A program made the translations under genes and the position numbers. The notes under the pieces are model-generated. The model was not told the origin of the DNA. It made no database searches and saw only the letters and a program-made list of their open reading frames with translations. A DNA stretch of 64,000 nt from a virus (Duplodnaviria; Caudoviricetes): the IMG/VR virus record IMGVR_UViG_3300002220_000568, positions 1,660 to 65,659 of that record; one strand, given 5' to 3'. Of the stretch, positions 23,327-52,298 are shown piece by piece; positions within the stretch are counted from its first letter, which is position 1; every line of letters begins with the position of its first letter.

Positions 23327-24733
23327 ATGAAAACAGTTTACATGGTTAAGACTTTCGATGACTTTGATACACATATGAATGAAAGTGGAGCTTGGGATTG
23401 GTTAACTGGCAAAAAATCAAAAAATAAAGATGCTGAGAATACTGAAAATCCTACTCAGCATACTGACCAAATAGAAGATAAGTCTTCCGATTTAGAAGTT
23501 AACTCCTTTTATAAGGAATTAGAAGACTTTGCTAATTCTGGAAAATCAGTTGTCGTTCAGTCAAAGGGTAATATGCAATATTCAGAGCTAGTTAAAAAAA
23601 TACAAATGGGTCTTGATTTTCTAGGCTTTAAGTTGCCAAATCACGGAATAGATGGACTATTTGGGCCAGAAACAGCACATGCAATAGAACAATTTAATGC
23701 AAGTACTAAATCAAATACTCAACCGGTTGATGAAAGCCTTTTACCGTTTGGCGCATATTTTAAAAATATTTATGAGGCAGCAAATGGAAAAATTTCGCCA
23801 GATGCACTTGAAAATATTGGAGAACCTGGGAAACAAGATGGACCACACAAGTTAAATGACGAAGCAGCAGCAGCATATGATCAAATGAAAGCAGCAGCCG
23901 AAGCAGACGGAATTACATGGAAAATAAACGATTCATATAGGGATTATGACCAACAGGTTAAAACTGCAAAAGAAAAGGGTTTATATAAAGATGGCGGGCT
24001 TGCTGCAGTACCTGGAACGTCAAACCACGGTTGGGGGTCAGCTGTTGATTTACAATTAGACACAAATGCTCTTAATTGGTTAAAACAAAATGCTGCAAAA
24101 TTTGGTTTTTCTAATATTTCTAGGGAACATTGGCATTGGGAACATAAATCTAGTATTCCATCTGCTCAAAATGCACCACAATCAACTGCAAGTTCAACGA
24201 TTTCATTAATTGATGGAAATTTAATAAAGAGGTTGATATTTAATTTAAAGAATCGGGGATTTAATAAAGAAACATTGGCAAAATATGCAACATCCGAACC
24301 AACCTCTTCTGGAAATACTCAAAATCTTAATGATGATGCATTCTATCGTTCGATTTTAAAAATGCTAGGAGCAAACGAAACTCCAGAAAAGATGAAATTT
24401 TTGAAAGCTTGGCGACAAGCTGAAGGAGGTAAAGCTGATTATAATCCATTTAATACCACGAAAAATTTAAGGGTATCAGGTATTAGAAATTATAATAGTG
24501 TTGGAGTTAAAGAATATCCAAATGCTGAAACTGGATTATCCGCAACCGTTGCTACCTTACGGCTTCCATATTATAAGAATCTAGTATCTCTTCTACAAGA
24601 TGACAGCATAACAGCTGATCAATTAGCAAATAGTCCAGACCTTAATACTTGGGGAACAAAAGATGGAGTTATTAAAGTTTTAGCCGGTGGAAGAGTTAAT
24701 CCACCAGCTATTGCAACGTCACAAATTGCTTAA
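23327..24733 (+). CDS. Modular peptidoglycan hydrolase: PG-binding + M15 (VanY-like) peptidase + lysozyme-like domain
   Basis: GIDGLFGPET (PG-binding); INDSYR...PGTSNHGWGSAVD...EHWHWE (M15); AWRQAEGG...NPFNTT...GVKEY. Confidence 0.85.
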   Translation: MKTVYMVKTFDDFDTHMNESGAWDWLTGKKSKNKDAENTENPTQHTDQIEDKSSDLEVNSFYKELEDFANSGKSVVVQSKGNMQYSELVKKIQMGLDFLGFKLPNHGIDGLFGPETAHAIEQFNASTKSNTQPVDESLLPFGAYFKNIYEAANGKISPDALENIGEPGKQDGPHKLNDEAAAAYDQMKAAAEADGITWKINDSYRDYDQQVKTAKEKGLYKDGGLAAVPGTSNHGWGSAVDLQLDTNALNWLKQNAAKFGFSNISREHWHWEHKSSIPSAQNAPQSTASSTISLIDGNLIKRLIFNLKNRGFNKETLAKYATSEPTSSGNTQNLNDDAFYRSILKMLGANETPEKMKFLKAWRQAEGGKADYNPFNTTKNLRVSGIRNYNSVGVKEYPNAETGLSATVATLRLPYYKNLVSLLQDDSITADQLANSPDLNTWGTKDGVIKVLAGGRVNPPAIATSQIA

Positions 24734-25803
24734 TTAGAAAGAGGAATCTTTATCGCAGCTTGCGATTGATACCCAATTATTTCAAAATCAGATATGTCAT
24801 ACTCAGAAATGTCTTCAACTTGACGGTCTGCAATCTTTAGTTGAGGAAGAGGAAAACTATCTCTGGTCAATTGTTCTTGCATCATCGGCACTTGGTTAAG
24901 GTAAATGTGAGCATCTCCAATTGATGCAATCAATTCGCCTGGAACCATGTTAACATGTTTAGCTAGAATTTCTAACAGAAGACCATACGATGCAAGGTTA
25001 AATGGCAGTCCTAATGGAATGTCATTGCTACGAATGTTGAACATTAGAGATACTTCATACACTGGAATATTTCTAGTCTTTAGTATTGAATCAGTCCAAT
25101 GTGTGTCTTCCTGTTTCATCTGTGGAGCATACAGATTGTAGTAAATATCGATTCTTTCCTGACGAGAAAGTAGTCTAGTATAAAGCTGGAAAGAATAATG
25201 ACATGGAGGAAGAGTCATCTGAGGAATTTCTGGAACGTTCCAAGCGCTAACAATCATTCTACGATCTTCTGGATTGTTTTTGAGCTTATGAATGATATTC
25301 TTTATCTGATCAATCGATTCTCCATTCCAAAATTCTCCAGAAATTTGCTTTCCATCTTCTGATTTATTTTGAATATCGTAATTAAATACTTCCCAATTTC
25401 TCCATTGTTTTCCGTATACTGGACCTAACTCACCCCAAATGCTAGCAAAAGATGGATCATTTTTTATCATCTCAATAAATTCAGCCTTATCCATCTTCTT
25501 ACCTGTTCCAGGAATACATTGATTTTCGAATTTTTTATATGCGTCGCCGACCCAAATGTTACAATCATTGTCTACCATATACTTGAGGTTGGTTCCACCT
25601 TTTAAAAACCATAAAAGTTCTACAATAATTGCTTTAAAATATACTTTTTTTGTTGTAATTAATGGAAAACCATCACTCATTTTATGTCGAATAGTTCTAC
25701 CAAAAACTGAAATGTTACCAGTACCAGTTCTATCACCTTTTACTGTGCCATTTGTTAAAATGTCTGAAATTAAATCACTATACTGCTTATCCAGAGTATT
25801 CAT
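24730..25803 (-). CDS. thyA: Thymidylate synthase
   Basis: DRTGTG, GPVYGKQWR, LPPCH, RSND, PFNLASY, GDAHIY. Confidence 0.97.
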   Translation of the reverse strand: MNTLDKQYSDLISDILTNGTVKGDRTGTGNISVFGRTIRHKMSDGFPLITTKKVYFKAIIVELLWFLKGGTNLKYMVDNDCNIWVGDAYKKFENQCIPGTGKKMDKAEFIEMIKNDPSFASIWGELGPVYGKQWRNWEVFNYDIQNKSEDGKQISGEFWNGESIDQIKNIIHKLKNNPEDRRMIVSAWNVPEIPQMTLPPCHYSFQLYTRLLSRQERIDIYYNLYAPQMKQEDTHWTDSILKTRNIPVYEVSLMFNIRSNDIPLGLPFNLASYGLLLEILAKHVNMVPGELIASIGDAHIYLNQVPMMQEQLTRDSFPLPQLKIADRQVEDISEYDISDFEIIGYQSQAAIKIPLSN

Positions 25804-27254: not shown

Positions 27255-27370
27255 ATTTTAATTATACTGATAGTCGTTAATAAGTTTATTGCTGAAACCT
27301 TCAATATTCATATACTAATTGAGCCAGTTTGTTCTAAATCAGATAAATATTTAAAAATAACCAAATCATA

Positions 27371-30028: not shown

Positions 30029-30412
30029 TTATAATCGATACTTTGTATACGATTTTTCTTCAATTATTGTCGATTCAGTTAAGTTATTTATAGCTCGCTT
30101 AAGTTCAGAACGTTCGTCATTTGTAAAATAAACAGATCTGGCAAAATCTAGAAACTCACCATCAAATTGATGGTGTAATTCTTTGTTTCGAAGGTTATCT
30201 TCGATTTCCCATAGTTTTAAATTCACCCTACACAATTCATCAAAAATCTTGGCAACCTCTTTATTTGATAATAAATTGATTGACAGATTTGCTAAGATTA
30301 CTAATTCAGTATCGATGTTTTTAAGTTTAATGGGATCTACTATTTTAGCTTTTTTTATTTCCAGAATACTCAATTTGTCAAGTAATTCTCCATTTGATAT
30401 TTCAACTTTCAT
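30029..30412 (-). CDS. DUF6165-like protein (glycosyltransferase-associated)
   Basis: VEISNGELLDKLSILEIK...LWEIED...ARSVYFTNDERSELKRAIN. Confidence 0.8.
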   Translation of the reverse strand: MKVEISNGELLDKLSILEIKKAKIVDPIKLKNIDTELVILANLSINLLSNKEVAKIFDELCRVNLKLWEIEDNLRNKELHHQFDGEFLDFARSVYFTNDERSELKRAINNLTESTIIEEKSYTKYRL

Positions 30413-31291
30413 TTATAACCATTTTTTTATAGATTCAAATACTTGATCTGGTGTTATTGATGTATGACATTCAAACTGCTGACTTGTATTTTTATGTAAA
30501 GGACACCAATACCAATCGTCAGTATCAAATGCAAAATCTAAATTTACTTTATTCCAACAACCATGGCAAACATTAGGATTAGAAATTCTAATATAATCAT
30601 CACACGATATATCAAATTCATACCAATCCTCAGTAAAATTTGCGATCATTGCAACTTTTTGTCCAAGAGCATGAGCTAACCAAGTAAGACCAGATGAGAG
30701 CCCTATAAAAAATTCAGCGTGCTCTATATAATTTGCAACTTCCGGTAAAGATAATCCTAATTTCTTCTGTGCTTTATTTGGCACACCATTAAAATATGGG
30801 CTTTCACCAAATAACTCATCACGGTCTATAACAACTGGAGTTAGCCCAACCTTTCGAAACTTTTGACACAATTCATTCCAGTATAGTGTTTCACGTTGAC
30901 TCTTTTTACCAGTTGGGTGATTCCAGTATTTTAATTGTGAAGTAGAATGACAGCTAATAACTACATACTTTCCCTTTATTGGTCTTTCTGTTTTAAAACT
31001 ATCAACTATTGGCCTGATATATGGTGCATCAGTATACCCTAATTGTTCAGCGATACCGGCTTGCAATGGCTTATCAAACTTATGAATAATATTGATTACC
31101 GTTTCGCAATCCGGTATTCCAGAGGTATATTGAATATTCGGAAATGCTTTTTTAAAAAGAGTTTGATGGTATGGATTGCCTAATTTAATAATGACATCAT
31201 GATCAGAATCATTTATAAATTTATTAAAATATGGCATTGCTGCAATACAGTCACCTAATGGATAACCAATGACTATACCTATTTTTGGCAT
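30413..31291 (-). CDS. GT9-like Aah/TibC-type O-heptosyltransferase
   Basis: LGDCIA, HSTSQLKYWN, FFIGLSSGLTWLAHA, C-terminal CHGCWN...WCP...FEC. Confidence 0.85.
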   Translation of the reverse strand: MPKIGIVIGYPLGDCIAAMPYFNKFINDSDHDVIIKLGNPYHQTLFKKAFPNIQYTSGIPDCETVINIIHKFDKPLQAGIAEQLGYTDAPYIRPIVDSFKTERPIKGKYVVISCHSTSQLKYWNHPTGKKSQRETLYWNELCQKFRKVGLTPVVIDRDELFGESPYFNGVPNKAQKKLGLSLPEVANYIEHAEFFIGLSSGLTWLAHALGQKVAMIANFTEDWYEFDISCDDYIRISNPNVCHGCWNKVNLDFAFDTDDWYWCPLHKNTSQQFECHTSITPDQVFESIKKWL

Positions 31292-31930
31292 TTATTGATA
31301 TAGATTATTTTCGTATAAATTAGTAACTTCTCGGATTACTCTAATGACATCTAATGCATCTTGTACTGCATCATGTGTAACTTTATCACTAATACCAATA
31401 CGAGACATACACGTATCCAAATTAGGTAATCTTTCATCATTTAACCAATCTGTAAAAATTACAGTAGGGTCAATAATTCTCTGGTTTACTTGAATAAAAC
31501 TTGACCAACCTGGAAGTTTTTCTAAGAATAATTTATCAAACGTTCCAAAATTTTTGCCAGCAACATTAATTTGAAGTTGCCCAGTTTTAAAGCCAGTATG
31601 CGGCAGAATACCATTTCCTATGAGCCATTCATATAATGCTTTAACTGCAAGGCCTTGACTCATAATACGATGATTTTTTCGTATATTTGATCTATCTTCA
31701 CTAGTTTTTGCAGTTTGTAGAGATGCAAGAATTTGCATTATCCAATTATTCAAATTTAATGCATATGGCTGACCAGTATAAAACGGGTGTTCAATAATAC
31801 ATGAAAATTTTGGAAGATCAATTAATGGTAAAATTTTTACAGTATCTTCAATAACTGCTCCAATCTGTAAAATTTGACAAGACTCTGGATCAAGACCAGT
31901 AGTCTCAATATCAATAGAAACAAATTTCAT
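31292..31930 (-). CDS. DEDDh 3'-5' exonuclease
   Basis: IDIETTG, NFGTFD, HDAVQDA. Confidence 0.9.
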   Translation of the reverse strand: MKFVSIDIETTGLDPESCQILQIGAVIEDTVKILPLIDLPKFSCIIEHPFYTGQPYALNLNNWIMQILASLQTAKTSEDRSNIRKNHRIMSQGLAVKALYEWLIGNGILPHTGFKTGQLQINVAGKNFGTFDKLFLEKLPGWSSFIQVNQRIIDPTVIFTDWLNDERLPNLDTCMSRIGISDKVTHDAVQDALDVIRVIREVTNLYENNLYQ

Positions 31931-32474: not shown

Positions 32475-32766
32475 TTTGTTTAAACCCTAATTTAAGAAGT
32501 AGAAGTTCTTCACTACTTCGTGTAGTTGTTTCCCTTAAATTTACAAATTCTGTTGCTGCATCCATTGCTAACTCAATAGTTTCTTGCAACTTTAGTATAT
32601 CGTTTGGGCACTGATATTTTTTATAAAAATTAGTTACCCCCATATCATTTATAACAATCAAATGCATATCTTTACCGCCAATACATTTTTCCTGTATAGC
32701 ATGTAGTTTAACATTGATATTAAACTGATAAGTTCGGTATTTGAATACTTTGTTAAATTCGTTCAT
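32464..32766 (-). CDS. Hypothetical protein
   Basis: 100-aa ORF in operon. Confidence 0.6.
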   Translation of the reverse strand: MNEFNKVFKYRTYQFNINVKLHAIQEKCIGGKDMHLIVINDMGVTNFYKKYQCPNDILKLQETIELAMDAATEFVNLRETTTRSSEELLLLKLGFKQNGN

Positions 32767-33616
32767 AAACTATACGTAAAAATGGTAAAATGTCTGTTGC
32801 TGTAAAACCTGCTGCTCCTGCATGGCCGCCGCCTCCTCTTCGTAAACAAATATCGGAGCAATCAACTACGCCATTACTGTATAAAGAAAATTTCCAAATT
32901 CCACGATCATAATAAAAACTACAGAACCCAGCATATCCATCTTGGTGAAAATCAATACCAAAATTAATTGGGTTAAATCTATCTCGATTAACTGCAGCAA
33001 ACAGATGACCGTCAAACATCATATCGAATCGCTTTTCGTATATTTGTTTAGCTTCCATTACTAAACTGCTATAAATATAACGACCTTCTTCATACATTTT
33101 AGTAATTGCAGTTTTATCTAAATGCAAAGCCTCTGTAGCAGTTTGCCAACTGTCCCATTTAGCTCTAGCTGCATATTGAAAAAGTAAAACTTCTAATTCT
33201 TCGAATGTTCCCATGTGACCAAAACAATCATATCTGCCTAATAGCCTAACTGCTTCTGGCATATCTTGGCCAACATTTATTGTCTCCCAAGTTAATTCAC
33301 AAGCTGCTTTAGTTGGGTCTATTGCAAATTGAAAAAATGGATTATTTTGAATTTCATATCTCAAGTTTTTATCAAATTCTCTAATCGCAGAAATATGATG
33401 ATCTATCCATAGAACTTTACGGCCTTCATTCAAAAACTTTGTAAAGGTTTCTGTTGAAAATGACACATCTACGATAATAAGATCACCATCTGGTAAATCA
33501 GGAACAGGCTGACCATAATCATATGGTATCATTATACAGTCCATATATTTTTCTTTCACGATAGCGGCACTAGTCCATCCATCAAGATCGATTCCGTGGT
33601 AAATGCAAATTGTCAT
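32753..33616 (-). CDS. DHH/DHHA1 phosphoesterase
   Basis: YHGIDLDG, IDHH, GGGGHAGAAGF. Confidence 0.9.
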   Translation of the reverse strand: MTICIYHGIDLDGWTSAAIVKEKYMDCIMIPYDYGQPVPDLPDGDLIIVDVSFSTETFTKFLNEGRKVLWIDHHISAIREFDKNLRYEIQNNPFFQFAIDPTKAACELTWETINVGQDMPEAVRLLGRYDCFGHMGTFEELEVLLFQYAARAKWDSWQTATEALHLDKTAITKMYEEGRYIYSSLVMEAKQIYEKRFDMMFDGHLFAAVNRDRFNPINFGIDFHQDGYAGFCSFYYDRGIWKFSLYSNGVVDCSDICLRRGGGGHAGAAGFTATDILPFLRIVYERI

Positions 33617-34062
33617 TGCTGTCTTAGTTTTTTTCGTAATTTAACTAATCGTGAAATGAATTCACGCTTAGTGAGAACTGTTTCATTTTCATTAGATCTA
33701 CCAATTTCATGAGTTAATGTTGCATCACCTGAAGCCAATAGTGCTCCCCTAAATGATGGACTTCTAAACAGAGCATCGTATGCTCGGTCTAATAACTCTT
33801 GATACTCAGGCGATGATCTTTTATAACTAACGCCATTCCAATATAGAGTTTGATCAGTTTGCCACCTTTTTTTCTTACCTTTAAATTTAGCAGCTTTCCC
33901 TACTAATTTGCAAACTGCTTGTTGCATTGGGACACTTGAAAATTTAAAACTTTGAAGAAGACCTTCCATTGAATTGCATTCCACCCCATCAAATACGAAA
34001 GGGTGTGGTGCAAAATTACTTAAGGCATTTGATGGGTATGCTTTACCTGAACCTATATCCAT
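33613..34062 (-). CDS. NADAR-family protein, T4 gp30.3-like
   Basis: PSNALSNFAPHPFVFDGV...EGLLQSFK...TLYWNG...FRGALLAS...LTKREFI parallels T4 gp30.3. Confidence 0.85.
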   Translation of the reverse strand: MDIGSGKAYPSNALSNFAPHPFVFDGVECNSMEGLLQSFKFSSVPMQQAVCKLVGKAAKFKGKKKRWQTDQTLYWNGVSYKRSSPEYQELLDRAYDALFRSPSFRGALLASGDATLTHEIGRSNENETVLTKREFISRLVKLRKKLRQQ

Positions 34063-34075
34063 TAGTTTGTTGTCA

Positions 34076-34498
34076 TTAAAAGGGTAAATCGTCGTCTACA
34101 TCATTAGACTTGACATGTTCAATATCTTCTTGTGGAATTTTTCTACCACCCTTTTTTGCTTTACCTGGAAATAAATCAGGATCGTCGAAAATATCTGACC
34201 CATCATCTTCTGGTTCAACACTAGCTCTTTTTTCTCCAAATACTCGCCAAGCTTCAAGTGCGTTATAATACTTTCCATTAAACTCGCGGCCTTTAATATC
34301 AAACGATACCTTTACTGTATCGCCCAATGTGAAAGAATCGATCATATCACATTTTTCTTGAACAAGTTGAAAAATTATTTTTTGTGGGTATTTACCCGAG
34401 TCAGTTTCAATTACGAATTCTCTTTTTTTGAATCCTTTATTGAAAGTAGCAGTTGGCATAATTTCAGCCAATGTCCCAGTTAATTCAAATGCGCTCAT
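34076..34498 (-). CDS. DUF3127 OB-fold protein (SSB-like)
   Basis: FKKREFVIET..KYPQKIIFQLVQEKC...FDIKGREFNGKYYNALEAW; C-terminal DDDLPF. Confidence 0.9.
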   Translation of the reverse strand: MSAFELTGTLAEIMPTATFNKGFKKREFVIETDSGKYPQKIIFQLVQEKCDMIDSFTLGDTVKVSFDIKGREFNGKYYNALEAWRVFGEKRASVEPEDDGSDIFDDPDLFPGKAKKGGRKIPQEDIEHVKSNDVDDDLPF

Positions 34499-34509
34499 AT
34501 TATGTTGTG

Positions 34510-34995
34510 TTAAAAATTTGGGTTATTTACTCGAATGTCGTAATCTGTAAAACCATTAAAATCAAGGTCATCAGATTTGAGTCTACGGTCTAATGTATCA
34601 CCTGGCATTATTCTCAAAGTAAGACGCTCTCTTATAATGGCTGATGGAATATCAATAAAAATAATAAAACATTTGGCCCTATCTTCTGGTTTAATTTTTG
34701 ATATACCAGCTGGCGTCATAATGAAAATATCATCCTCATTGAACTGTTGTTTAGTAGTTCCGTATAACCAACCATTAAATCGAACATACTCATAGAACTC
34801 GTCATTTTCTATCATCCGAGTTGCATCTTCTTCAGATATGAATATGTAATCTTTTCCATTTATTTCATGTGGTCTAGGAGGCCGAGTTGTCATACTGATA
34901 GATGGTGTAAATCCACGATCTATAAATTTAGCTCTCAGATAATCTTTACCCGAAGCAGCTCGACCTACTAAAATAATGCGTTTATGTTCACTCAT
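34510..34995 (-). CDS. gmk: Guanylate kinase
   Basis: GRAASGKD P-loop; TTRPPRPHEINGKDYIF. Confidence 0.9.
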   Translation of the reverse strand: MSEHKRIILVGRAASGKDYLRAKFIDRGFTPSISMTTRPPRPHEINGKDYIFISEEDATRMIENDEFYEYVRFNGWLYGTTKQQFNEDDIFIMTPAGISKIKPEDRAKCFIIFIDIPSAIIRERLTLRIMPGDTLDRRLKSDDLDFNGFTDYDIRVNNPNF

Positions 34996-35009
34996 ATAAT
35001 TTTGGTTAT

Positions 35010-36302
35010 TTAGTCTTCTCTGTCATCTTCATAAATATGCTTAATGACTGGGAATCTTAACGAATTTTTTCCATGTTGATCTTGAGTTTCTTCAAAATAC
35101 TGAACGGTAATTGTTTTACCTAGAATTTCATTAGGGTTTTTATAAAATAACCGTCTTTGCTCAAGAGAAAATCCTGAACCTACACTAACTGGATCGCCTT
35201 TATGTAGAATTTGGACATTCTTTAACATTTCTTCTTCTATTTCTTCGCCATTTTCAATTATTCGCATCATGCCGATCTCATATCCAATGACTTCATATTC
35301 AGCATCTTCCATTTGTTTTACTTTAAGAAGATTTGCTGATCTTTTACCTTCATACTCAACGTCTTTACGTAGCATGATACCTTCATATCCAGCTTCTTCT
35401 GCATCTTTAACCAATTGATCAAAATGTTCTTGGCTTTCGACTTGTATTTGTTCAAGAACTTTTGCATTATTTAATTGGTACATCCCAAATAATGCGTTTA
35501 ACATAATTTGCCGTGCAACAAAGGTTGTTGTTCCAGATTCATTAATGAATTCATCAAGTTCAAGAAAATCAAATACTTGATACATTGGATTTTTAATAGT
35601 ATGATCTTTTATTCTGGCTTCTTTAAGAATGCCTTGAAAATCTTCCAACCCATTTTCTTTCATTATGCAAATTTCGCCGTCTAGCACTTTATTCTTAAGA
35701 TTGAGTTTCTTAAGATCTTCTGCTAACACAGATAATGTGAAAAATTCTTTACCTTTTCTTGAAAAGAATCGAACATCACCAGCTACATCAAATATTGCTA
35801 AACACCGTAATCCATCAAGTTTACGACTTGCCCACCAAAGTTTTGTTTCAAATACGACCTTCTTTATGTGGTCACGAAACTTTTGAGCTAACGCTACTTC
35901 AAAACTTGGAACTGTTTTTGGAAAAACTTTATTAATTAATGATCCGGTTGCTCGTGTTTTAATATTACGGTCTATAACATCATAGAGGATCTCAGAAAAT
36001 TCTGAATATTTGTCAATTAAACCATTTACTGCTGCTATTGCAGTGTGACCAGTGATGCGGCGTGTGCTCAAATCATCAAGAAGAATAAACAGATCATCAT
36101 ACTCATTTGAGTTTAGCTCTGGGTGCTTTCTTAAATTATCAGAGGTAACATAATATTGGTTAAACGGTGTATACACATACGTAAACAGTTTCAAAAGAAA
36201 CGGTGATTCGTATTTTTTAAGAATTTCTTTCTTTGCATTTGTTGAAGAAGTAGATTTCATCTCATTGATGAATGCTTCTAATTGAAGTAAGTCATTTTTC
36301 AT
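35010..36302 (-). CDS. ATP-dependent DNA ligase (T4 gp30-like)
   Basis: KLDGLR, LDGEI, VFD, EGIMLR, LLKVK, VGSGFS, LRFP. Confidence 0.95.
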   Translation of the reverse strand: MKNDLLQLEAFINEMKSTSSTNAKKEILKKYESPFLLKLFTYVYTPFNQYYVTSDNLRKHPELNSNEYDDLFILLDDLSTRRITGHTAIAAVNGLIDKYSEFSEILYDVIDRNIKTRATGSLINKVFPKTVPSFEVALAQKFRDHIKKVVFETKLWWASRKLDGLRCLAIFDVAGDVRFFSRKGKEFFTLSVLAEDLKKLNLKNKVLDGEICIMKENGLEDFQGILKEARIKDHTIKNPMYQVFDFLELDEFINESGTTTFVARQIMLNALFGMYQLNNAKVLEQIQVESQEHFDQLVKDAEEAGYEGIMLRKDVEYEGKRSANLLKVKQMEDAEYEVIGYEIGMMRIIENGEEIEEEMLKNVQILHKGDPVSVGSGFSLEQRRLFYKNPNEILGKTITVQYFEETQDQHGKNSLRFPVIKHIYEDDRED

Positions 36303-36341
36303 AATATTATTATACTATATTATTGACAATTGGACATAAAA

Positions 36342-38229: not shown

Positions 38230-39345
38230 ATGAATAAGTACGTATTTGAATTTGCTCAGTATTCAGAGCAACCTTTAATCGAATCGACATTTGGTATACT
38301 TGGAGATACTGGTAAGCGTTCAAAATTTGGTGAACAAACTGGATATTTTAAAAGGCTATTAGAAAAAGCTTCTAAACTTGGGGTTGATGCATTTGTATTT
38401 ACTGATTTTTCAGATAATGGAGTTACCGCTTGGAAAATAAAAGACGGTAAATGGGTTGCTGAAAATAGAGGTTTGCCTAAAGTTTTTTATAATAGAAGTT
38501 TTAGAAGTAGACCATATGTTAAGGGCACTTCAAGTACGAAATATTTAGTTGAACGCGGCTGTATTCCGATAAATTCTGCTAATTTTAGAAAGGTTGCATT
38601 AGACAAACATTTAACTTATGAAAGTTTGAAAAATGAAGATCTTGGTGAAATGGGGTTACCATATACTGAAAAATATAGAGATAGTATCCTTGTAGAATTT
38701 TTACACAATCATCCATCTAGTATTTTAAAACCGAGATTTGGTTCTGGTGGAAAAGGTATAATGAAAATTACCAAGAATGGAAATTCGTATGATTTGCACT
38801 ATAAAGATAATCATATACATTGTCCAGAAGATCAATTAATTGAAAGAGTAAAATCTATTAGGCAAAAATTAAAAACTACTGATAGACTGTATATTATCCA
38901 AGAATGCATACAATTACCAAAATATCAAGATTCAGTTTTTGATATTCGCGTAATTTATCAAAAAGGAGCAAATGGCAAACCATTAAGAACTGGAATGGCT
39001 GCTAGAGTAGCTGCGCCAAATAGAATAACTGCAAATTTACATCAAGGAGGTGGAAAAGCACCATTAAGTTCAATACTTGAAACTTTATTTAATCAAAATA
39101 TGGAAGGTGCAATAGCTGAATCCATAAGAAACCATGCAAAAAAAGTATTTGATTTACTTGAAAATAAAGTAGGTCCAATTGGAGAAATTGGAATTGATTT
39201 TTTAATAGACCAAGGTGGGAAAGTTCATCTTATTGAAGTTAATTCAGTTCCAGGTAGAAATCTTTTTAAAATATTACCTGAAATACGAGAAGCTGCAATA
39301 CAAAGGCCTGTCGAATATGCAAAATTTCTTCTTGATAAAAAATAA
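38230..39345 (+). CDS. YheC/YheD-like ATP-grasp ligase
   Basis: ILKPRFGSGGKGI, YIIQECI, FDIRV, TANLHQGG, EIGIDF...LIEVNSVPG. Confidence 0.9.
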   Translation: MNKYVFEFAQYSEQPLIESTFGILGDTGKRSKFGEQTGYFKRLLEKASKLGVDAFVFTDFSDNGVTAWKIKDGKWVAENRGLPKVFYNRSFRSRPYVKGTSSTKYLVERGCIPINSANFRKVALDKHLTYESLKNEDLGEMGLPYTEKYRDSILVEFLHNHPSSILKPRFGSGGKGIMKITKNGNSYDLHYKDNHIHCPEDQLIERVKSIRQKLKTTDRLYIIQECIQLPKYQDSVFDIRVIYQKGANGKPLRTGMAARVAAPNRITANLHQGGGKAPLSSILETLFNQNMEGAIAESIRNHAKKVFDLLENKVGPIGEIGIDFLIDQGGKVHLIEVNSVPGRNLFKILPEIREAAIQRPVEYAKFLLDKK

Positions 39346-43229: not shown

Positions 43230-43271
43230 TTAATGATGAGTCATTTGTATTATTTATAGGAGAACTTATAG

Positions 43272-44339
43272 TTAAAGAGTACTTGCTATGCTATATAAAA
43301 TTTTCTGATAATCTGCAGGTGAACAATCAATTAAAAATTTACAAATTTCATAAAACTCATCAACTGAATTAAATGTCATTGCTGGGTGAAACCCACTTTT
43401 ATAACATACTGGTATAACTCCAGCGATAATAGATTCGTATATTCTAGCAGGAATAAAACCACGATCAAGATATAAATCTTTACTAACGTTTATAGACACT
43501 ATTGAATTACATAAATGTTGCCAAATCTTAGCACGGTCAGTTCTAGGAATTACTGTAACTAAATTCATACCTTTGGTACATTCTCGAATACTAGAAGTGT
43601 CCTTCGTTGCAAGTGTCATCCTAAATATACGCTGGTCAAACATAAATTGGTGTTCGACTTCATTAATAATATCAAAAATTATTGGATTTTTGTGATGCCC
43701 TGATTTATAATTCATGAAATCTAAATTTCCATAGAATATTATGTTTGCCTCTTTTGTAAGTTGATTTGCATGAATGTCTAAGCATTCATTAAGAAAATTT
43801 TTACTTACTCCAGGAAAATGAATAGATGGAATCATTACTTCAATGCCAATTTCATCTAACCTATTTTTAAAAGTATCGCTAAGAGATAAATCAGTATCTA
43901 AAACGATAATTTCACTTGGCAAATATCCAACAGACAGAGCATGCTGAATAAGTGTTTCGAATCGATATGTGTCTTTTAATTTTTTTGATAAGGTAGAAAG
44001 ATTTCGAAATCTAGCTTTGAAAAAAAGTTTTGAATATGTTTTATGAGAAATTTCAGCCCATACTTGATCATACGAAAGCCTATATTTTTCAATTAATTCA
44101 TTAGAATAATTATTCATTAACTGACCAATTTGTCCTTCTGGAAATTGAGGTCTAGAATAATGAGAAATATCATCCATTGTCGTATCTATTGGGCCATCTA
44201 AATAATTGTAAAAGTCAAATTTATCAATACCAAATACCTTTGATATTGAATCGAGTAAACCGACTTGATAAAAAGAATGACCTGGTATATCATCATCAAA
44301 TATTCCAATTTCTCCGAAATATGCGTATAGTGCTTTCAT
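43272..44339 (-). CDS. GT-B glycosyltransferase, T4 DNA beta-glucosyltransferase-like
   Basis: IIFYGNLDF..KSG and SIVSINVSKDLYLDRGFIPARIYESI parallel BGT segments IYGGSFRSG and AIAALIIGDKNYNDNFITLRVWETM; similar length. Confidence 0.65.
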   Translation of the reverse strand: MKALYAYFGEIGIFDDDIPGHSFYQVGLLDSISKVFGIDKFDFYNYLDGPIDTTMDDISHYSRPQFPEGQIGQLMNNYSNELIEKYRLSYDQVWAEISHKTYSKLFFKARFRNLSTLSKKLKDTYRFETLIQHALSVGYLPSEIIVLDTDLSLSDTFKNRLDEIGIEVMIPSIHFPGVSKNFLNECLDIHANQLTKEANIIFYGNLDFMNYKSGHHKNPIIFDIINEVEHQFMFDQRIFRMTLATKDTSSIRECTKGMNLVTVIPRTDRAKIWQHLCNSIVSINVSKDLYLDRGFIPARIYESIIAGVIPVCYKSGFHPAMTFNSVDEFYEICKFLIDCSPADYQKILYSIASTL

Positions 44340-44340
44340 A

Positions 44341-44577
44341 TCAGATTAACTTAAGATCTTTTAATATTGCTAAGTATTTTGCTTTTCGCAAGCGGCTTAC
44401 TGCTTCTGCTAATTTTTCTTCAAACTCCCGGTCTGTCCAATTTCCATACACAAGCATCCTATCTGCTGTAATAGGTACACTTGTGCCAATTTCACAATAA
44501 AGAAATGATAAACCTTCAGATTTTGCTGACAAAATCTTATCTCTAAGAGTTAGTTCTTCATGAAACTTATATCCCAT
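44341..44577 (-). CDS. Small hypothetical protein in the FkbM-GT operon
   Basis: Start moved to ATG 44577 (MGYKFHEEL), 78 aa. Confidence 0.55.
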   Translation of the reverse strand: MGYKFHEELTLRDKILSAKSEGLSFLYCEIGTSVPITADRMLVYGNWTDREFEEKLAEAVSRLRKAKYLAILKDLKLI

Positions 44578-44587
44578 ATTTGTAATA

Positions 44588-45382
44588 TTATAATTTAACT
44601 GCTGCGAAATGTGTAATAAAATGTTTGCTACTTGCAGCCAGAGCATTTACATAAATTCTATCAAAATTATTTCTCATTATTTGCATAATTTCTTCGAATT
44701 TTTCTTCTCTGTTTTTAGAAAGGTGAGTGTAATGAAAGTGATATTCGATAATGGCAATGCGTATGTTAGACCAATCTCTAACTGCTTTAATGAGGTCATA
44801 TTCTAAACCTTCAACGTCCATTTTTAAACACGTTCCTTTACTAATCGCTACATTTATATTCTCTGCCGAAACTGTAGTAATTTGTCGTTTGTTAATATGA
44901 AGAGTACTATGTTTTCCAGAATCAGTAGATAGATACAAATTAGTTTCAGTATCATCATTTGGAACCAATGCTTTTTCTACTATTTCGCATCGATCTGCTA
45001 CGTTATTTAGTATTAGATTTGCCTTTGCAAATTCAATATTCGCTGGGAAAGGTTCATACGCTATAACTTTTTGAATTCTAGGAAATTGAGTTAACATGCG
45101 AGTTGCAAATAGCCCAATATGAGCACCGGCATCTATCCAAATATCTTCTTTATTTAGGTCTTCTAAAGATAAGGATGGGAAACCGTGCCGGTATTTTTCT
45201 GCAAATAATGGACTAAAATATTCACCGCCAGTTGGCTTAACCGACACATTTTGATAAACATTCAAATCTATTTCCGATTGCGATCTTACTAGAAATTGAT
45301 ATTCATGATATTTGGTCTTCTTTGTAATAAGACGTAATGTTCCAGCAGTTCTAGCTTCTTCAATTGTACACAGTACTGACAT
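44588..45382 (-). CDS. FkbM-family SAM-dependent methyltransferase
   Basis: WIDAGAHIGLFA, IAYEP, LKMDVEGLE. Confidence 0.9.
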   Translation of the reverse strand: MSVLCTIEEARTAGTLRLITKKTKYHEYQFLVRSQSEIDLNVYQNVSVKPTGGEYFSPLFAEKYRHGFPSLSLEDLNKEDIWIDAGAHIGLFATRMLTQFPRIQKVIAYEPFPANIEFAKANLILNNVADRCEIVEKALVPNDDTETNLYLSTDSGKHSTLHINKRQITTVSAENINVAISKGTCLKMDVEGLEYDLIKAVRDWSNIRIAIIEYHFHYTHLSKNREEKFEEIMQIMRNNFDRIYVNALAASSKHFITHFAAVKL

Positions 45383-45412
45383 AGTTTGTATTTTTAACTA
45401 TTATACTATGCT

Positions 45413-47241: not shown

Positions 47242-47298
47242 TCAATAGCTATCTTTTTTTTATTTATTTAGATTAATCGTGTTAACTTTATTTATCTG

Positions 47299-49266
47299 TT
47301 AATCAGTTAACGTTTGTTGCGAACCTGGTATATTAATAGCGGCCGATGCATTAATTGTTTTAGGTACCCTAGGCTGTACAGTTGTTTTTGCAGGTCCTTC
47401 TATTTCACTAGATTTCTGTAAAATTTGTTTTTCTTCTTCTAATTTAGTAACCTGTTCGCGAAGTGAACTTAGTTTCTTCTCATTTTGTAAAGAAGATTCG
47501 CTATCTTTTTGTGAAGCTAATAAACTCGCATAATTAACAGATGATACCCAAGTTCCAGTATAAAACAGCGTTTCCGTTCCATCAGTTTTTGACACTAATG
47601 TAATAAAAAATTGATTATCGGTCATTGATAATATTTGGATAGCCTGGTCTTTAGGTATTCTAAAAACAAACTCTCCTCTACTTGGACTAGCTAATTTATT
47701 ATCAGCTAGATTTTCATAAATAAACTTACCAGTCTGCCCAAAATTCAATTTAAACAGTGAGTTATTATTGAGGTCTATTCGTTTTTGATTAGTATTATCA
47801 GTTGGATTAGCTTGGTATGCTGTAAATTTTATAAAATTGTCAACTGGGTCAACCGGTAGAACTAATCGACCTTGCCCATAAACTACTTGATCAGTTTCGT
47901 TTTTAATACTATTTAATGCATTACCTTGACTCATCATAATATCCATTTGCTTAATTGGGATATATTCTTTAACTGTCACGGTTTCGATTTTAGTTTCAAC
48001 GAATGGTATTGGCGGAACAGGAATGACATTTATTCTAGTAGACTTTGGCGCAAATAAATTAGAAAGCTCAAAATTCTTTTGTACTATTTTATTATAAACT
48101 CTCATAGATTGTGGGCCATCTGGCAAATTTATTTTTGCTAATTTTTTGCCATACCTATTTGGGTTCATTACGCTAACAGCAGCAGTTTTTATTACCTGGT
48201 CTCCAGTTAATGTGTTTATTAATCGTAAAGTATAATCAATTGACATAGAAACTGCATAACCTGCTTCCTTTAAGATAGGTCTATATGTAAGGATTTCATC
48301 AAATTGGTCCTGTTGATAAATTATAGCATTCCCAGTAGGATATAATTCGGTACCGATTTGTTCATATACTTGTAATTGATGAGAAAAAACCCAATTATTA
48401 TTTGGGCCACTTTCATTAAGAGTAGCAATGAATGAATCTGGGAAAGCTCCATCCCAAGTTGCATAAAATTCAATGTAGTCTCCATCTTCTGCTTCTTGGA
48501 TAATACATCCAAGCGCATCAAATTTATTTACTTGGGCAACTGATCCTTCGTAATAATTAATGAATTTATACCGGTCATATGCTATATTATTTGGTGCATT
48601 GTATTCTTCATAGTTGGCTTCTGCTAAATATACAGTGATTGGAGCATCTTTAATAAAGCCTACGCCATTTGTAATATTCCAAGAAAATGAAAGATTTCCA
48701 AACTCTGCATAATCCTTATCTAGCCATGGAGCAGATGGAATTTTAACGTCAACATATCTATCATATATCGTATTAGCAATAAATAGAGGTTGTGTATTAT
48801 ATGTAAATATCGTTTGTGCTGTTGCTGCATCAAGTAAAATAGTAGCTATTTGAACCTGTTTAAGATTATTCATCTTATATTTTGCACCAACTATAATATT
48901 TTCAACTTCACTAAAATTAAAACCTGAAGCAAAATGAAATCGTAATGTATCCATTACTAAATTTGAGCTTAGTGTTGGATTGAGTGCAGTTTCTGTAATA
49001 TTTGGGTCATATTGTGTATATATTGGAATGTTTGTCGGATCAACATATACTACTTTGGACCCACCTACTGAAACAACACTTAAATTTCTTGAATTATGAG
49101 TAAGTTCAATATCGCCATCACTATTATAAATTTGATATGTGTCAACATTTTTATTGTCAACAAAATAATACTCCGTACTTAACATAGGCGGAGTTGGATC
49201 GCTTAATGGAGTTGCTCTAAACTCTAAAATGCAATAGTTAGAAAGATTTACAAAGCTTGAATTCAT
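47299..49266 (-). CDS. Large beta-rich structural protein
   Basis: 655-aa ORF in the morphogenesis operon. Confidence 0.7.
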   Translation of the reverse strand: MNSSFVNLSNYCILEFRATPLSDPTPPMLSTEYYFVDNKNVDTYQIYNSDGDIELTHNSRNLSVVSVGGSKVVYVDPTNIPIYTQYDPNITETALNPTLSSNLVMDTLRFHFASGFNFSEVENIIVGAKYKMNNLKQVQIATILLDAATAQTIFTYNTQPLFIANTIYDRYVDVKIPSAPWLDKDYAEFGNLSFSWNITNGVGFIKDAPITVYLAEANYEEYNAPNNIAYDRYKFINYYEGSVAQVNKFDALGCIIQEAEDGDYIEFYATWDGAFPDSFIATLNESGPNNNWVFSHQLQVYEQIGTELYPTGNAIIYQQDQFDEILTYRPILKEAGYAVSMSIDYTLRLINTLTGDQVIKTAAVSVMNPNRYGKKLAKINLPDGPQSMRVYNKIVQKNFELSNLFAPKSTRINVIPVPPIPFVETKIETVTVKEYIPIKQMDIMMSQGNALNSIKNETDQVVYGQGRLVLPVDPVDNFIKFTAYQANPTDNTNQKRIDLNNNSLFKLNFGQTGKFIYENLADNKLASPSRGEFVFRIPKDQAIQILSMTDNQFFITLVSKTDGTETLFYTGTWVSSVNYASLLASQKDSESSLQNEKKLSSLREQVTKLEEEKQILQKSSEIEGPAKTTVQPRVPKTINASAAINIPGSQQTLTD

Positions 49267-52000: not shown

Positions 52001-52033
52001 AAAATTAATCTTTTTATTATTTATTCACATAAT

Positions 52034-52066
52034 AAAAAGGTTCGACTTATTCAGTCGAACCTTTTT
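52034..52066 (-). terminator. Intrinsic terminator
   Basis: 14-bp stem aaaaaggttcgact / agtcgaaccttttt. Confidence 0.8.
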
Positions 52067-52298
52067 CTAATTCCATTTTAGTATTTAAGTTTGTTCCTGA
52101 TTCTTGAATTAATAGATTCAAATAGTATCGATATTCAAAATACGGTAACTTATATAGACTGTCAAACGATTGATTAAGCTTCACTGCTAAAATCCGGTTA
52201 ATCTCAAATAAGTTCGTTAAGTCCGCCTGAAATAAAGAAAAGATCTTTAACCGTGAAGCCGGACTTTGAAAAAAGAGGTGATGACGCAAGTTTTCCAC
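52047..52298 (-). CDS. Small ORF in the +1 frame overlapping the gp26-like gene (chaperone-extension-like)
   Basis: DLTNLFEINRILAVKLNQSFDSLYKLPYFEYRYYLNLL; its only ATG lies 95 nt inside the upstream gene. Confidence 0.6.
   Translation of the reverse strand: MENLRHHLFFQSPASRLKIFSLFQADLTNLFEINRILAVKLNQSFDSLYKLPYFEYRYYLNLLIQESGTNLNTKMELEKGSTE

Follow-up and report, generated by a model that had tools for sequence, protein, structure and literature searches.

A three-gene operon encoding an FkbM-family S-adenosylmethionine (SAM)-dependent methyltransferase (MT), a 78-aa orphan protein and a 355-aa glycosyltransferase (GT) candidate was located in a 64,000-nucleotide stretch of the virus record IMGVR_UViG_3300002220_000568 (positions 1,660 to 65,659 of that record; hereafter the window). 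Judged by its sequence and surroundings the GT is probably a 5-hydroxymethylcytosine (5hmC) DNA glycosyltransferase of a new family, and on balance we favour a role for the operon as a DNA-hypermodification unit of a hydroxymethylase/GT/MT pathway. A preliminary description of the window had proposed such a minus-strand unit behind an RGTATAAT promoter and this is the arrangement that we find (Table 1), with intergenic gaps of 10 nt between the MT and the 78-aa open reading frame (ORF) and of 1 nt between that ORF and the GT which suggest that the three genes form one translationally coupled unit.

In the proposed pathway a gp42-type dCMP hydroxymethylase would make 5-hydroxymethyl-dCMP, which would be incorporated at replication. 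The GT-B enzyme would then move a sugar from a host NDP-sugar onto the hydroxymethyl group of the base in duplex DNA, in the manner of the T4 alpha- and beta-glucosyltransferases (AGT and BGT), and the FkbM-type MT would O-methylate the attached sugar. In the many relatives that encode one, an MBD4-type glycosylase would remove deamination-derived 5-hydroxymethyluracil (5hmU) or thymine opposite G. From the genomic context we infer 5hmC in DNA as the acceptor, and likewise the donor sugar, the sequence of steps and the substrate of the MT.

An AlphaFold model of the GT, for which 33 homologues served as input, reached a pLDDT of 90.4 and a pTM of 0.90, and a Foldseek search returned 278 PDB chains at E <= 0.001, the top matches listed being nearly all GT-B enzymes. 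The predicted model is unambiguously of the GT-B fold, with two Rossmann-like domains and a cleft between them along the full length of the protein. Its best structural matches were the GT4-type enzymes PglH (6eji; Foldseek E 1.6e-7, VIA Z 16.4), PimA (2gej; Z 15.6) and BshA (6n1x), with Z scores of 16.4-15.5, and matches were also obtained to T4 AGT (Z 14.6, Foldseek TM 0.53-0.54), T4 BGT (Z 14.2) and the DNA GT of phage HY126 (PDB 9iqz/9ir0; Z 13.7), the VIA matches of Z 16.4-12 spanning GT residues 1-355. The preliminary description had likened the enzyme to T4 BGT and suggested a Foldseek comparison with the BGT structure: the likeness holds for fold and length, with 1qkj matched at E 2.7e-6, but not for the C-terminal motifs, as an hhalign comparison of the GT family with T4 BGT (GT63, PF09198) gave a probability of 0.5% and no homology. 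The acceptor is not decidable from the modelled fold alone.

At the sequence level the GT had no match in Pfam, PHROGs, the PDB (phmmer and profile searches) or cultured phages (tblastn). Pfam thresholds were reached by no member of the family, and none of the 33 members matched T4 AGT (GT72, PF11440) at E <= 10 or PF00534. Candidates for nucleotide-sugar binding residues of the C-terminal domain, R266, R269, K287, R299 and E302, are invariant in these 33 members and their equivalents are kept in divergent subfamilies; also invariant are K108, R110 and R112, which may line a DNA-binding groove, and D148-T149-D150, which follows an N-domain strand (144-147) and may correspond to the catalytic Asp100 of BGT. 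Divergent subfamilies at 25-34% identity keep the motifs PGH..YQ, LK.RF.N.S, D(T/S)D, GN, R..R, (S/T)K..Y and PR..E, and the invariant N-terminal motifs PGH..YQ, LKARFRN.S and DTD were found in this family alone.

The source is an uncultured PAU-like freshwater jumbo phage of ~270 kb. CheckV completeness of the 65.6-kb IMG/VR contig, of which the window covers 64 kb, is 24% and the contig is thus only a fragment of a genome of that size. The nearest relatives of its large terminase are found in Sphingomonas phage PAU, Tenacibaculum phages and uncultured megaphages, and the operon region gave no megablast match in phage records. Near-complete relatives were available in G001 (100% complete; 270,962 bp with terminal repeats), G002 (94%), G003 (84%) and G004 (81%).

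More than 238 homologues of the GT were found, all of them annotated as 'hypothetical', on contigs of up to 270 kb, the closest being 98% and 88% identical. Searched with a profile of the family, a set of 1.84 billion representative proteins yielded 58 clusters and no tie to other GT families, and the clustering with CgeB/LPS-type envelope enzymes that had been named at the outset as the contrary outcome was not seen. Single-protein scans with the divergent members P0182 and P0176 returned no match and alignment-based scans succeeded. Among 185,579 species genomes there was one match, on a phage-sized contig of 254,203 bp (L281, CAIWBA010000291.1) which is evidently a phage genome of the jumbo clade. 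On sequence grounds the family is closed, so far unnamed and almost phage-only. The single species-genome match had been binned into an uncultured Bacteroidetes metagenome-assembled genome, which hints weakly at freshwater Bacteroidota as hosts, in agreement with the window GC content of ~32% and with the Tenacibaculum/Flavobacterium phage relatives.

Divergent members of the family occur at seven loci from viral and metagenome collections (L200-L206, of which L202 and L205 end early) that belong to smaller uncultured phages. In all seven a P-loop kinase, a glycosylase of the uracil-DNA glycosylase (UDG) superfamily (PF03167; at 7348-8001 in L201) and the GT lie in a row, and a gp42-type hydroxymethylase is found directly beyond the GT in L201, L203 and L204 and 2-6 kb off in L200 and L206. 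A non-homologous GT thus occupies the place that b-gt has beside gene 42 in T4. The clusters continue with a family A or B DNA polymerase and a dCMP deaminase, a dUTPase_2 enzyme being clear in L200; no structural genes adjoin the GT and the MT is present in none of the seven. In L200 (14413-15720) the hydroxymethylase forms the C-terminal part of a 435-aa ORF whose homing-endonuclease-like N-terminal part carries NUMOD3 motifs, which represents either a fusion or an unrecognised intron/intein arrangement. The ThyA matches in PTm1 and MaF61 are likewise split in two pieces.

The thyA gene of the window had been described as carrying the dUMP-specific Asn, with the acceptor base consequently made elsewhere, and both points are borne out. 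In an alignment (A2) the window ThyA keeps the dUMP-type Asn (GLPFN), the PPCH motif and a Leu three residues before the catalytic Cys. The same alignment shows two large insertions in this 357-aa protein relative to E. coli-type enzymes. Each of G001-G004 encodes a second ThyA homologue of ~295 aa (at 107604-108494 in G001), adjoining a dCMP deaminase, whose best solved relatives are the CMP hydroxymethylase MilA (1.5e-23) and T4 gp42 (4.7e-19) with thymidylate synthases behind. Where the E. coli enzyme has L143 and N177 this homologue carries Asp, and D169 is retained (DFVCT, RSND, PTD), a reading that covers G001, G003, G004 and L201. Asp at L143 and N177 with D169 kept is the signature of a dCMP hydroxymethylase as opposed to thymidylate or 5-hydroxy-dCMP synthases (Lee et al. 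2026, PMC13326640), and the gp42-type signature was found in G001-G004, L200, L201, L203, L204 and L206. Context thus supports a gp42-type enzyme, encoded ~100 kb away in the relatives, as supplier of the acceptor base. Searches of G000-G004 revealed no sugar nucleotidyltransferase, so that the donor is likely to be one of the common NDP-sugars of the host, and for a dCTPase there were only sub-threshold dUTPase_2 matches in G001, G002 and G004.

The promoter box of the operon, AGTATAAT, lies 18 nt ahead of the MT start codon in the window, where further copies stand before two operons of DNA metabolism (Table 1) and a close variant before an exonuclease operon. As a bare 8-mer RGTATAAT shows no excess in the window (9 observed against 9.1 expected); what is non-random is its placement and not its frequency. 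Of 49 distinct relatives, 29 have an exact GTATAAT ~30 nt upstream of the MT start, and most others have the one-base variants AGTACAAT or AGTAAAAT. In the complete relative G001, 16 of 32 copies of the box are intergenic in a genome with an intergenic share of 8.7% (binomial P 1.7e-9), and the genes that they precede include topoisomerase II, gp32, UvdE, NUDIX, the thyA operon and the MT-GT unit. The view that RGTATAAT marks a promoter class of DNA metabolism stands on placement in the window and in G001, the word itself showing no excess.

A different box, ATAAATAA, reminiscent of the late promoter of T4 (TATAAATA), precedes the genes for the 786-aa, 512-aa, 553-aa and 337-aa proteins, baseplate and ATP-grasp genes and other presumably late genes and is not found upstream of the MT. 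The placement of the AGTATAAT box in the window, the relatives and G001 suggests that the operon shares its regulation with replication and repair genes despite its late-gene surroundings. A generic scan for sigma-70 promoters and terminators added nothing. With the promoter, the hydroxymethylase and the divergent clusters in its support, the original suggestion that the GT glycosylates a DNA base appears likely.

Across 80 IMG/VR loci of the jumbo clade the order of a 655-aa gene, a 512-aa gene, a small gene, the MT, a variable slot, the GT and a 786-aa gene is kept down to 40% GT identity, the 512-aa protein having no match in cultured phages. The GT is present in all of the 75 assessable loci and the MT in 71, the exceptions being L002, L003, L037 and L039. 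An MBD4-type glycosylase occupies the slot in 33 of the 71 MT-bearing loci; two of the 75 loci have the glycosylase without the MT, two have neither, and slots lacking this glycosylase hold unrelated small ORFs or nothing. The 78-aa ORF that fills the slot in the window gave no tblastn match in the 80 related loci, no Pfam or PHROG match and no look-alike in Atlas.

Over its full length the MBD4-type protein of the slot (at 212506-212922 in G001) resembles the mammalian MBD4 glycosylase domain (E 4e-29); it also matches Pfam HhH-GPD and retains the Asp of the GIG..D motif. MBD4 excises T, U and 5hmU opposite G. No MBD4-like gene was found on the sequenced DNA of the window genome. The GT family nearly always adjoins a DNA glycosylase, which is of the UDG superfamily in the smaller phages (L200-L206) and of the MBD4-type HhH-GPD kind in the jumbo clade (L010:9612-10031). 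This non-orthologous replacement across superfamilies suggests a functional pairing of GT and glycosylase, for example in the removal of deaminated modified cytosine. A more specific proposal, that the DNA of the clade bears O-methylated glycosyl-5hmC and that the new GT family is habitually paired with a glycosylase proofreading deaminated modified cytosine, is put forward only tentatively as it is more doubtful than the assignment of the GT itself.

The FkbM assignment made in the preliminary description is upheld by a match of the MT to PF05050 (E 2.8e-13, 50.8 bits, cut-off 22.7). It also matches phrog_8156 'methyltransferase' and has no match among PDB sequences. The SAM motif D84-x-G86-x-H88-x-G90 is invariant in 24 relatives, and the model (pLDDT 90.6) has a class I methyltransferase fold close to the FkbM structure 2py6 (Z 12.4, rmsd 3.0, 18% identity), in a VIA list that is flat (Z 13.1 to 10.8) and offers no substrate clue. 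Characterised FkbM enzymes O-methylate hydroxyl groups, among them those of sugars (NoeI); we know of none that acts on a DNA-linked sugar. O-methylation of the attached sugar fits these activities, the nearly invariable linkage of MT and GT and the existence of lineages that lack the MT but keep the GT, and by this analogy it is the most likely role of the MT.

Several observations weigh against a hydroxymethylase/GT/MT pathway. In the jumbo clade the hydroxymethylase is remote from the GT, none was found on the 65.6 kb (24%) of the source genome, and in G001 the AGTATAAT-class box also stands ahead of the non-DNA genes SPFH, ClpB, CAP and PG-binding. Others concern the MT and favour an explanation, which we consider unlikely, in which the GT does glycosylate 5hmC in DNA and the MT, merely co-transcribed, methylates a nucleobase, the hydroxymethyl group, a protein or a small molecule. 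RNA base methyltransferases (RlmCD, Trm5, TYW2, RlmG) stand level with FkbM among the top Foldseek and VIA matches of the MT, making sugar O-methylation one option among others, and its secondary Pfam match is TRM5-TYW2; the MT is moreover dispensable, being missing from four jumbo-clade loci and from all seven small-phage clusters with the GT kept. The linkage of MT and GT in nearly all assessable jumbo-clade loci and the known action of FkbM enzymes on hydroxyls, those of sugars included, argue otherwise, and loss of the MT while the GT stays is what would be expected of a decorating step after glycosylation.

The remaining contrary points bear on whether DNA is the target at all, since the MT-GT pair might modify a virion protein, such as a nearby structural protein, or a host envelope glycan in the manner of CgeB/LPS-type enzymes. 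In all relatives the operon is flanked by conserved late genes (655, 512 and 786 aa) that are presumably structural, GT4 envelope enzymes of glycan and lipid pathways match the GT fold slightly better than T4 AGT and BGT do, and 3 of the 33 GT members have weak, below-threshold matches to PF13524 (CgeB-type; best E 0.0031). The C-terminal P-A-R-x-Y-E-x(4)-G of the GT recalls the nucleotide-sugar binding motif of the GT4/CgeB group, and FkbM enzymes are frequent in glycan clusters. The GT4-like fold is however not discriminating, as verified phage GT-B DNA enzymes match T4 BGT and PglH alike in Foldseek, at 1e-5 to 1e-7 (bioRxiv 10.1101/2023.12.21.572611). The operon has its own non-late promoter common to replication and repair genes and in about half of the relatives contains a DNA glycosylase, and divergent GTs of unrelated phages sit in replication and nucleotide clusters beside a dCMP hydroxymethylase. 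In contrast to the GT4/CgeB group the family thus has a context of DNA metabolism rather than glycan synthesis and N-terminal motifs of its own; it is not found in cellular genomes, its one match there being the phage contig, and it has no HMMER tie to envelope GTs. We regard a protein or envelope target as improbable. Least probable of all is action of the GT on another hydroxylated DNA base, 5hmU or 5-hydroxycytosine (5hoC), both of which ThyA homologues are able to make (PMC13326640) and for which the uracil derivatives handled by MBD4- and UDG-type glycosylases and the 5hoC-type D169N of a ThyA homologue flanked by the weakly similar PAU gp179/gp180 could be cited, as the GT-linked hydroxymethylases (G001, G003, G004, L201) have the Asp at N177 that indicates a dCMP substrate and keep D169 and so are not of the 5hoC type.

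A ThyA homologue combined with a GT-B DNA glycosyltransferase is an arrangement of a known kind, and what is new in our reading of the operon as a DNA-hypermodification unit is the GT family, its FkbM partner and its recurrent glycosylase partner. The closest parallel is the 5hmC pathway of T4, with which the proposed pathway would share a ThyA homologue that hydroxymethylates before replication and whose active site bears the same signature (in the relatives), a GT-B enzyme of ~350 aa expressed alongside DNA-metabolism genes, and the presence of a dCMP deaminase and a nucleotide kinase in the same clusters. It differs in the lack of homology between the GT and BGT, in the distance of the jumbo-clade GT from the hydroxymethylase, in a dCTPase that was not clearly found, and in the coupling of the GT to an FkbM MT and a DNA glycosylase, both of which T4 lacks.

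GTs of 5mYOX/TET or ThyS clusters (GT53, GT66, GT94) resemble the new GT in fold and in having BGT and PglH as best solved pair at similar E-values, and GT-B types among them are often tied, as here, to thymidylate-synthase homologues and dCMP deaminase (bioRxiv 10.1101/2023.12.21.572611). Unlike the present family they were found through clusters of post-replicative methylases and dioxygenases, and the available text of that paper mentions neither FkbM nor O-methylation and no sugar methyltransferase. The glycosylated 5hoC systems of RB69, DLP3 and RL38J1 (PMC13326640) likewise combine a ThyA homologue, a dNMP kinase and DNA GTs, but their synthases carry D169N; as the linked ThyA homologues here keep D169, a hydroxymethyl rather than a hydroxy product is to be expected.

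Among outgroups to the clade, the megaphage LR756500 (L185) shares the terminase and the 655-aa gene and its hydroxymethylase is 50% identical to that of the clade; it has no member of the new GT family, and 1.4 kb downstream of the hydroxymethylase it encodes a true homologue of T4 BGT (E 6e-37, 26% identity over 357 aa). No BGT homologue was found in G000-G004 or L200-L206, and by sequence comparison the two families show a complementary distribution. In MaF61 and LR756502 the only ThyA is of the canonical type and the new GT family is absent. Nearby in LR756500.1 (462 kb, uncultured; 145624-158478) are a 248-aa ORF that is MobA-like and looks like a nucleotidyltransferase and another of 612 aa that contains a GGGGT motif, and the region may be a richer hypermodification cluster.

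The DNA of PAU is reportedly heavily modified (PMC7824862). In this phage (L199, JQ362498.1, 131657-141184) the ThyA homologue gp182 carries L143E, D169N and N177D (EYPC, RSNN, FD), which is the signature of 5-hydroxy-dCMP synthases (PMC13326640), and it is flanked by the unannotated 385-410-aa gp179, gp180, gp181 and gp183 and by RmlA, RmlB and RmlC homologues. The sequences suggest a glycosylated, perhaps rhamnose-type, 5hoC as the PAU modification. The GT-like paralogues gp179 and gp180 (385-391 aa) align with the C-domain of the GT family at hhalign E 2e-4 to 7e-4 (probability 26-46%), and as gp180 has no homologue among 5.8 billion proteins to strengthen this score the similarity stays a lead and not proof. 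The rank 2 match in BFVD, H9NC57 (385 aa), may be PAU gp180.

Table 1 Features of the operon and related elements in the window (positions in the 64,000-nucleotide stretch)
Feature	Coordinates	Strand	Remarks
FkbM-family SAM-dependent methyltransferase (MT), 264 aa	44588..45382	-	PF05050
78-aa orphan ORF, variable operon slot	44341..44577	-	without Pfam/PHROG match
GT-B fold glycosyltransferase (GT) candidate, 355 aa	43272..44339	-	fold of predicted model
AGTATAAT promoter box of MT operon, context CATAGTATAATAG	45400..45407	-	middle / DNA-metabolism class
Second AGTATAAT copy, before DNA ligase / guanylate-kinase-like / gp30.3 operon	36309..36316	-	
Third AGTATAAT copy, before phosphoesterase / thyA operon	27261..27268	-	
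TATAAATAA late-type box of next gene (786-aa protein), downstream limit of operon	43250..43258	-	
Canonical thymidylate synthase, not the acceptor-base source	24730-25803	-	PF00303, 306.6 bits

Across the window the ATAAATAA box was found before at least 12 presumably late genes, for instance at 43250-43258, 47242-47312 and 52001-52071, and the genes with this box include one for a YheC/D-type ATP-grasp protein (38230-39345). Small genes at 5-10 kb show a pattern of TTTTTTCCTTT followed by a TATATT-type element, and as these differ from the AGTATAAT and ATAAATAA sets three promoter classes can be distinguished in the window. The DNA ligase operon (32753-36302, minus strand) also encodes a DUF3127 protein, a T4 gp30.3 homologue (E 1e-56) and a DHH/DHHA1 phosphoesterase, and its guanylate-kinase-like protein (34510-34995) is by sequence a possible dNMP kinase for a modified nucleotide. 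A possible second GT of 292 aa, with a GT9 (heptosyltransferase) match below cut-off (E 0.0024), lies in a minus-strand region (30029-31930) that follows a TAGTATAAG box, its neighbours on the two sides being a DnaQ-like exonuclease and a DUF6165 protein. Homologues occur only in G001 and G002, where they form domains of proteins of 911 and 784 aa beside a Glycos_transf_1 domain.

If our assignment of the GT is correct it would represent a third sequence-unrelated family of 5hmC DNA glycosyltransferases, widespread in freshwater jumbo phages and smaller uncultured phages and invisible to Pfam and PHROGs. Glycosylated 5hmC is a classic phage shield against restriction enzymes and CRISPR. Methylation of a DNA-linked sugar by the FkbM enzyme would, if true, be the first methylated-sugar base hypermodification, a DNA chemistry that to our knowledge is undescribed so far and that would be of interest for tools discriminating modified cytosines. 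The pairing of the GT with a glycosylase of either of two unrelated superfamilies suggests that these phages may have a built-in quality control for modified cytosine.

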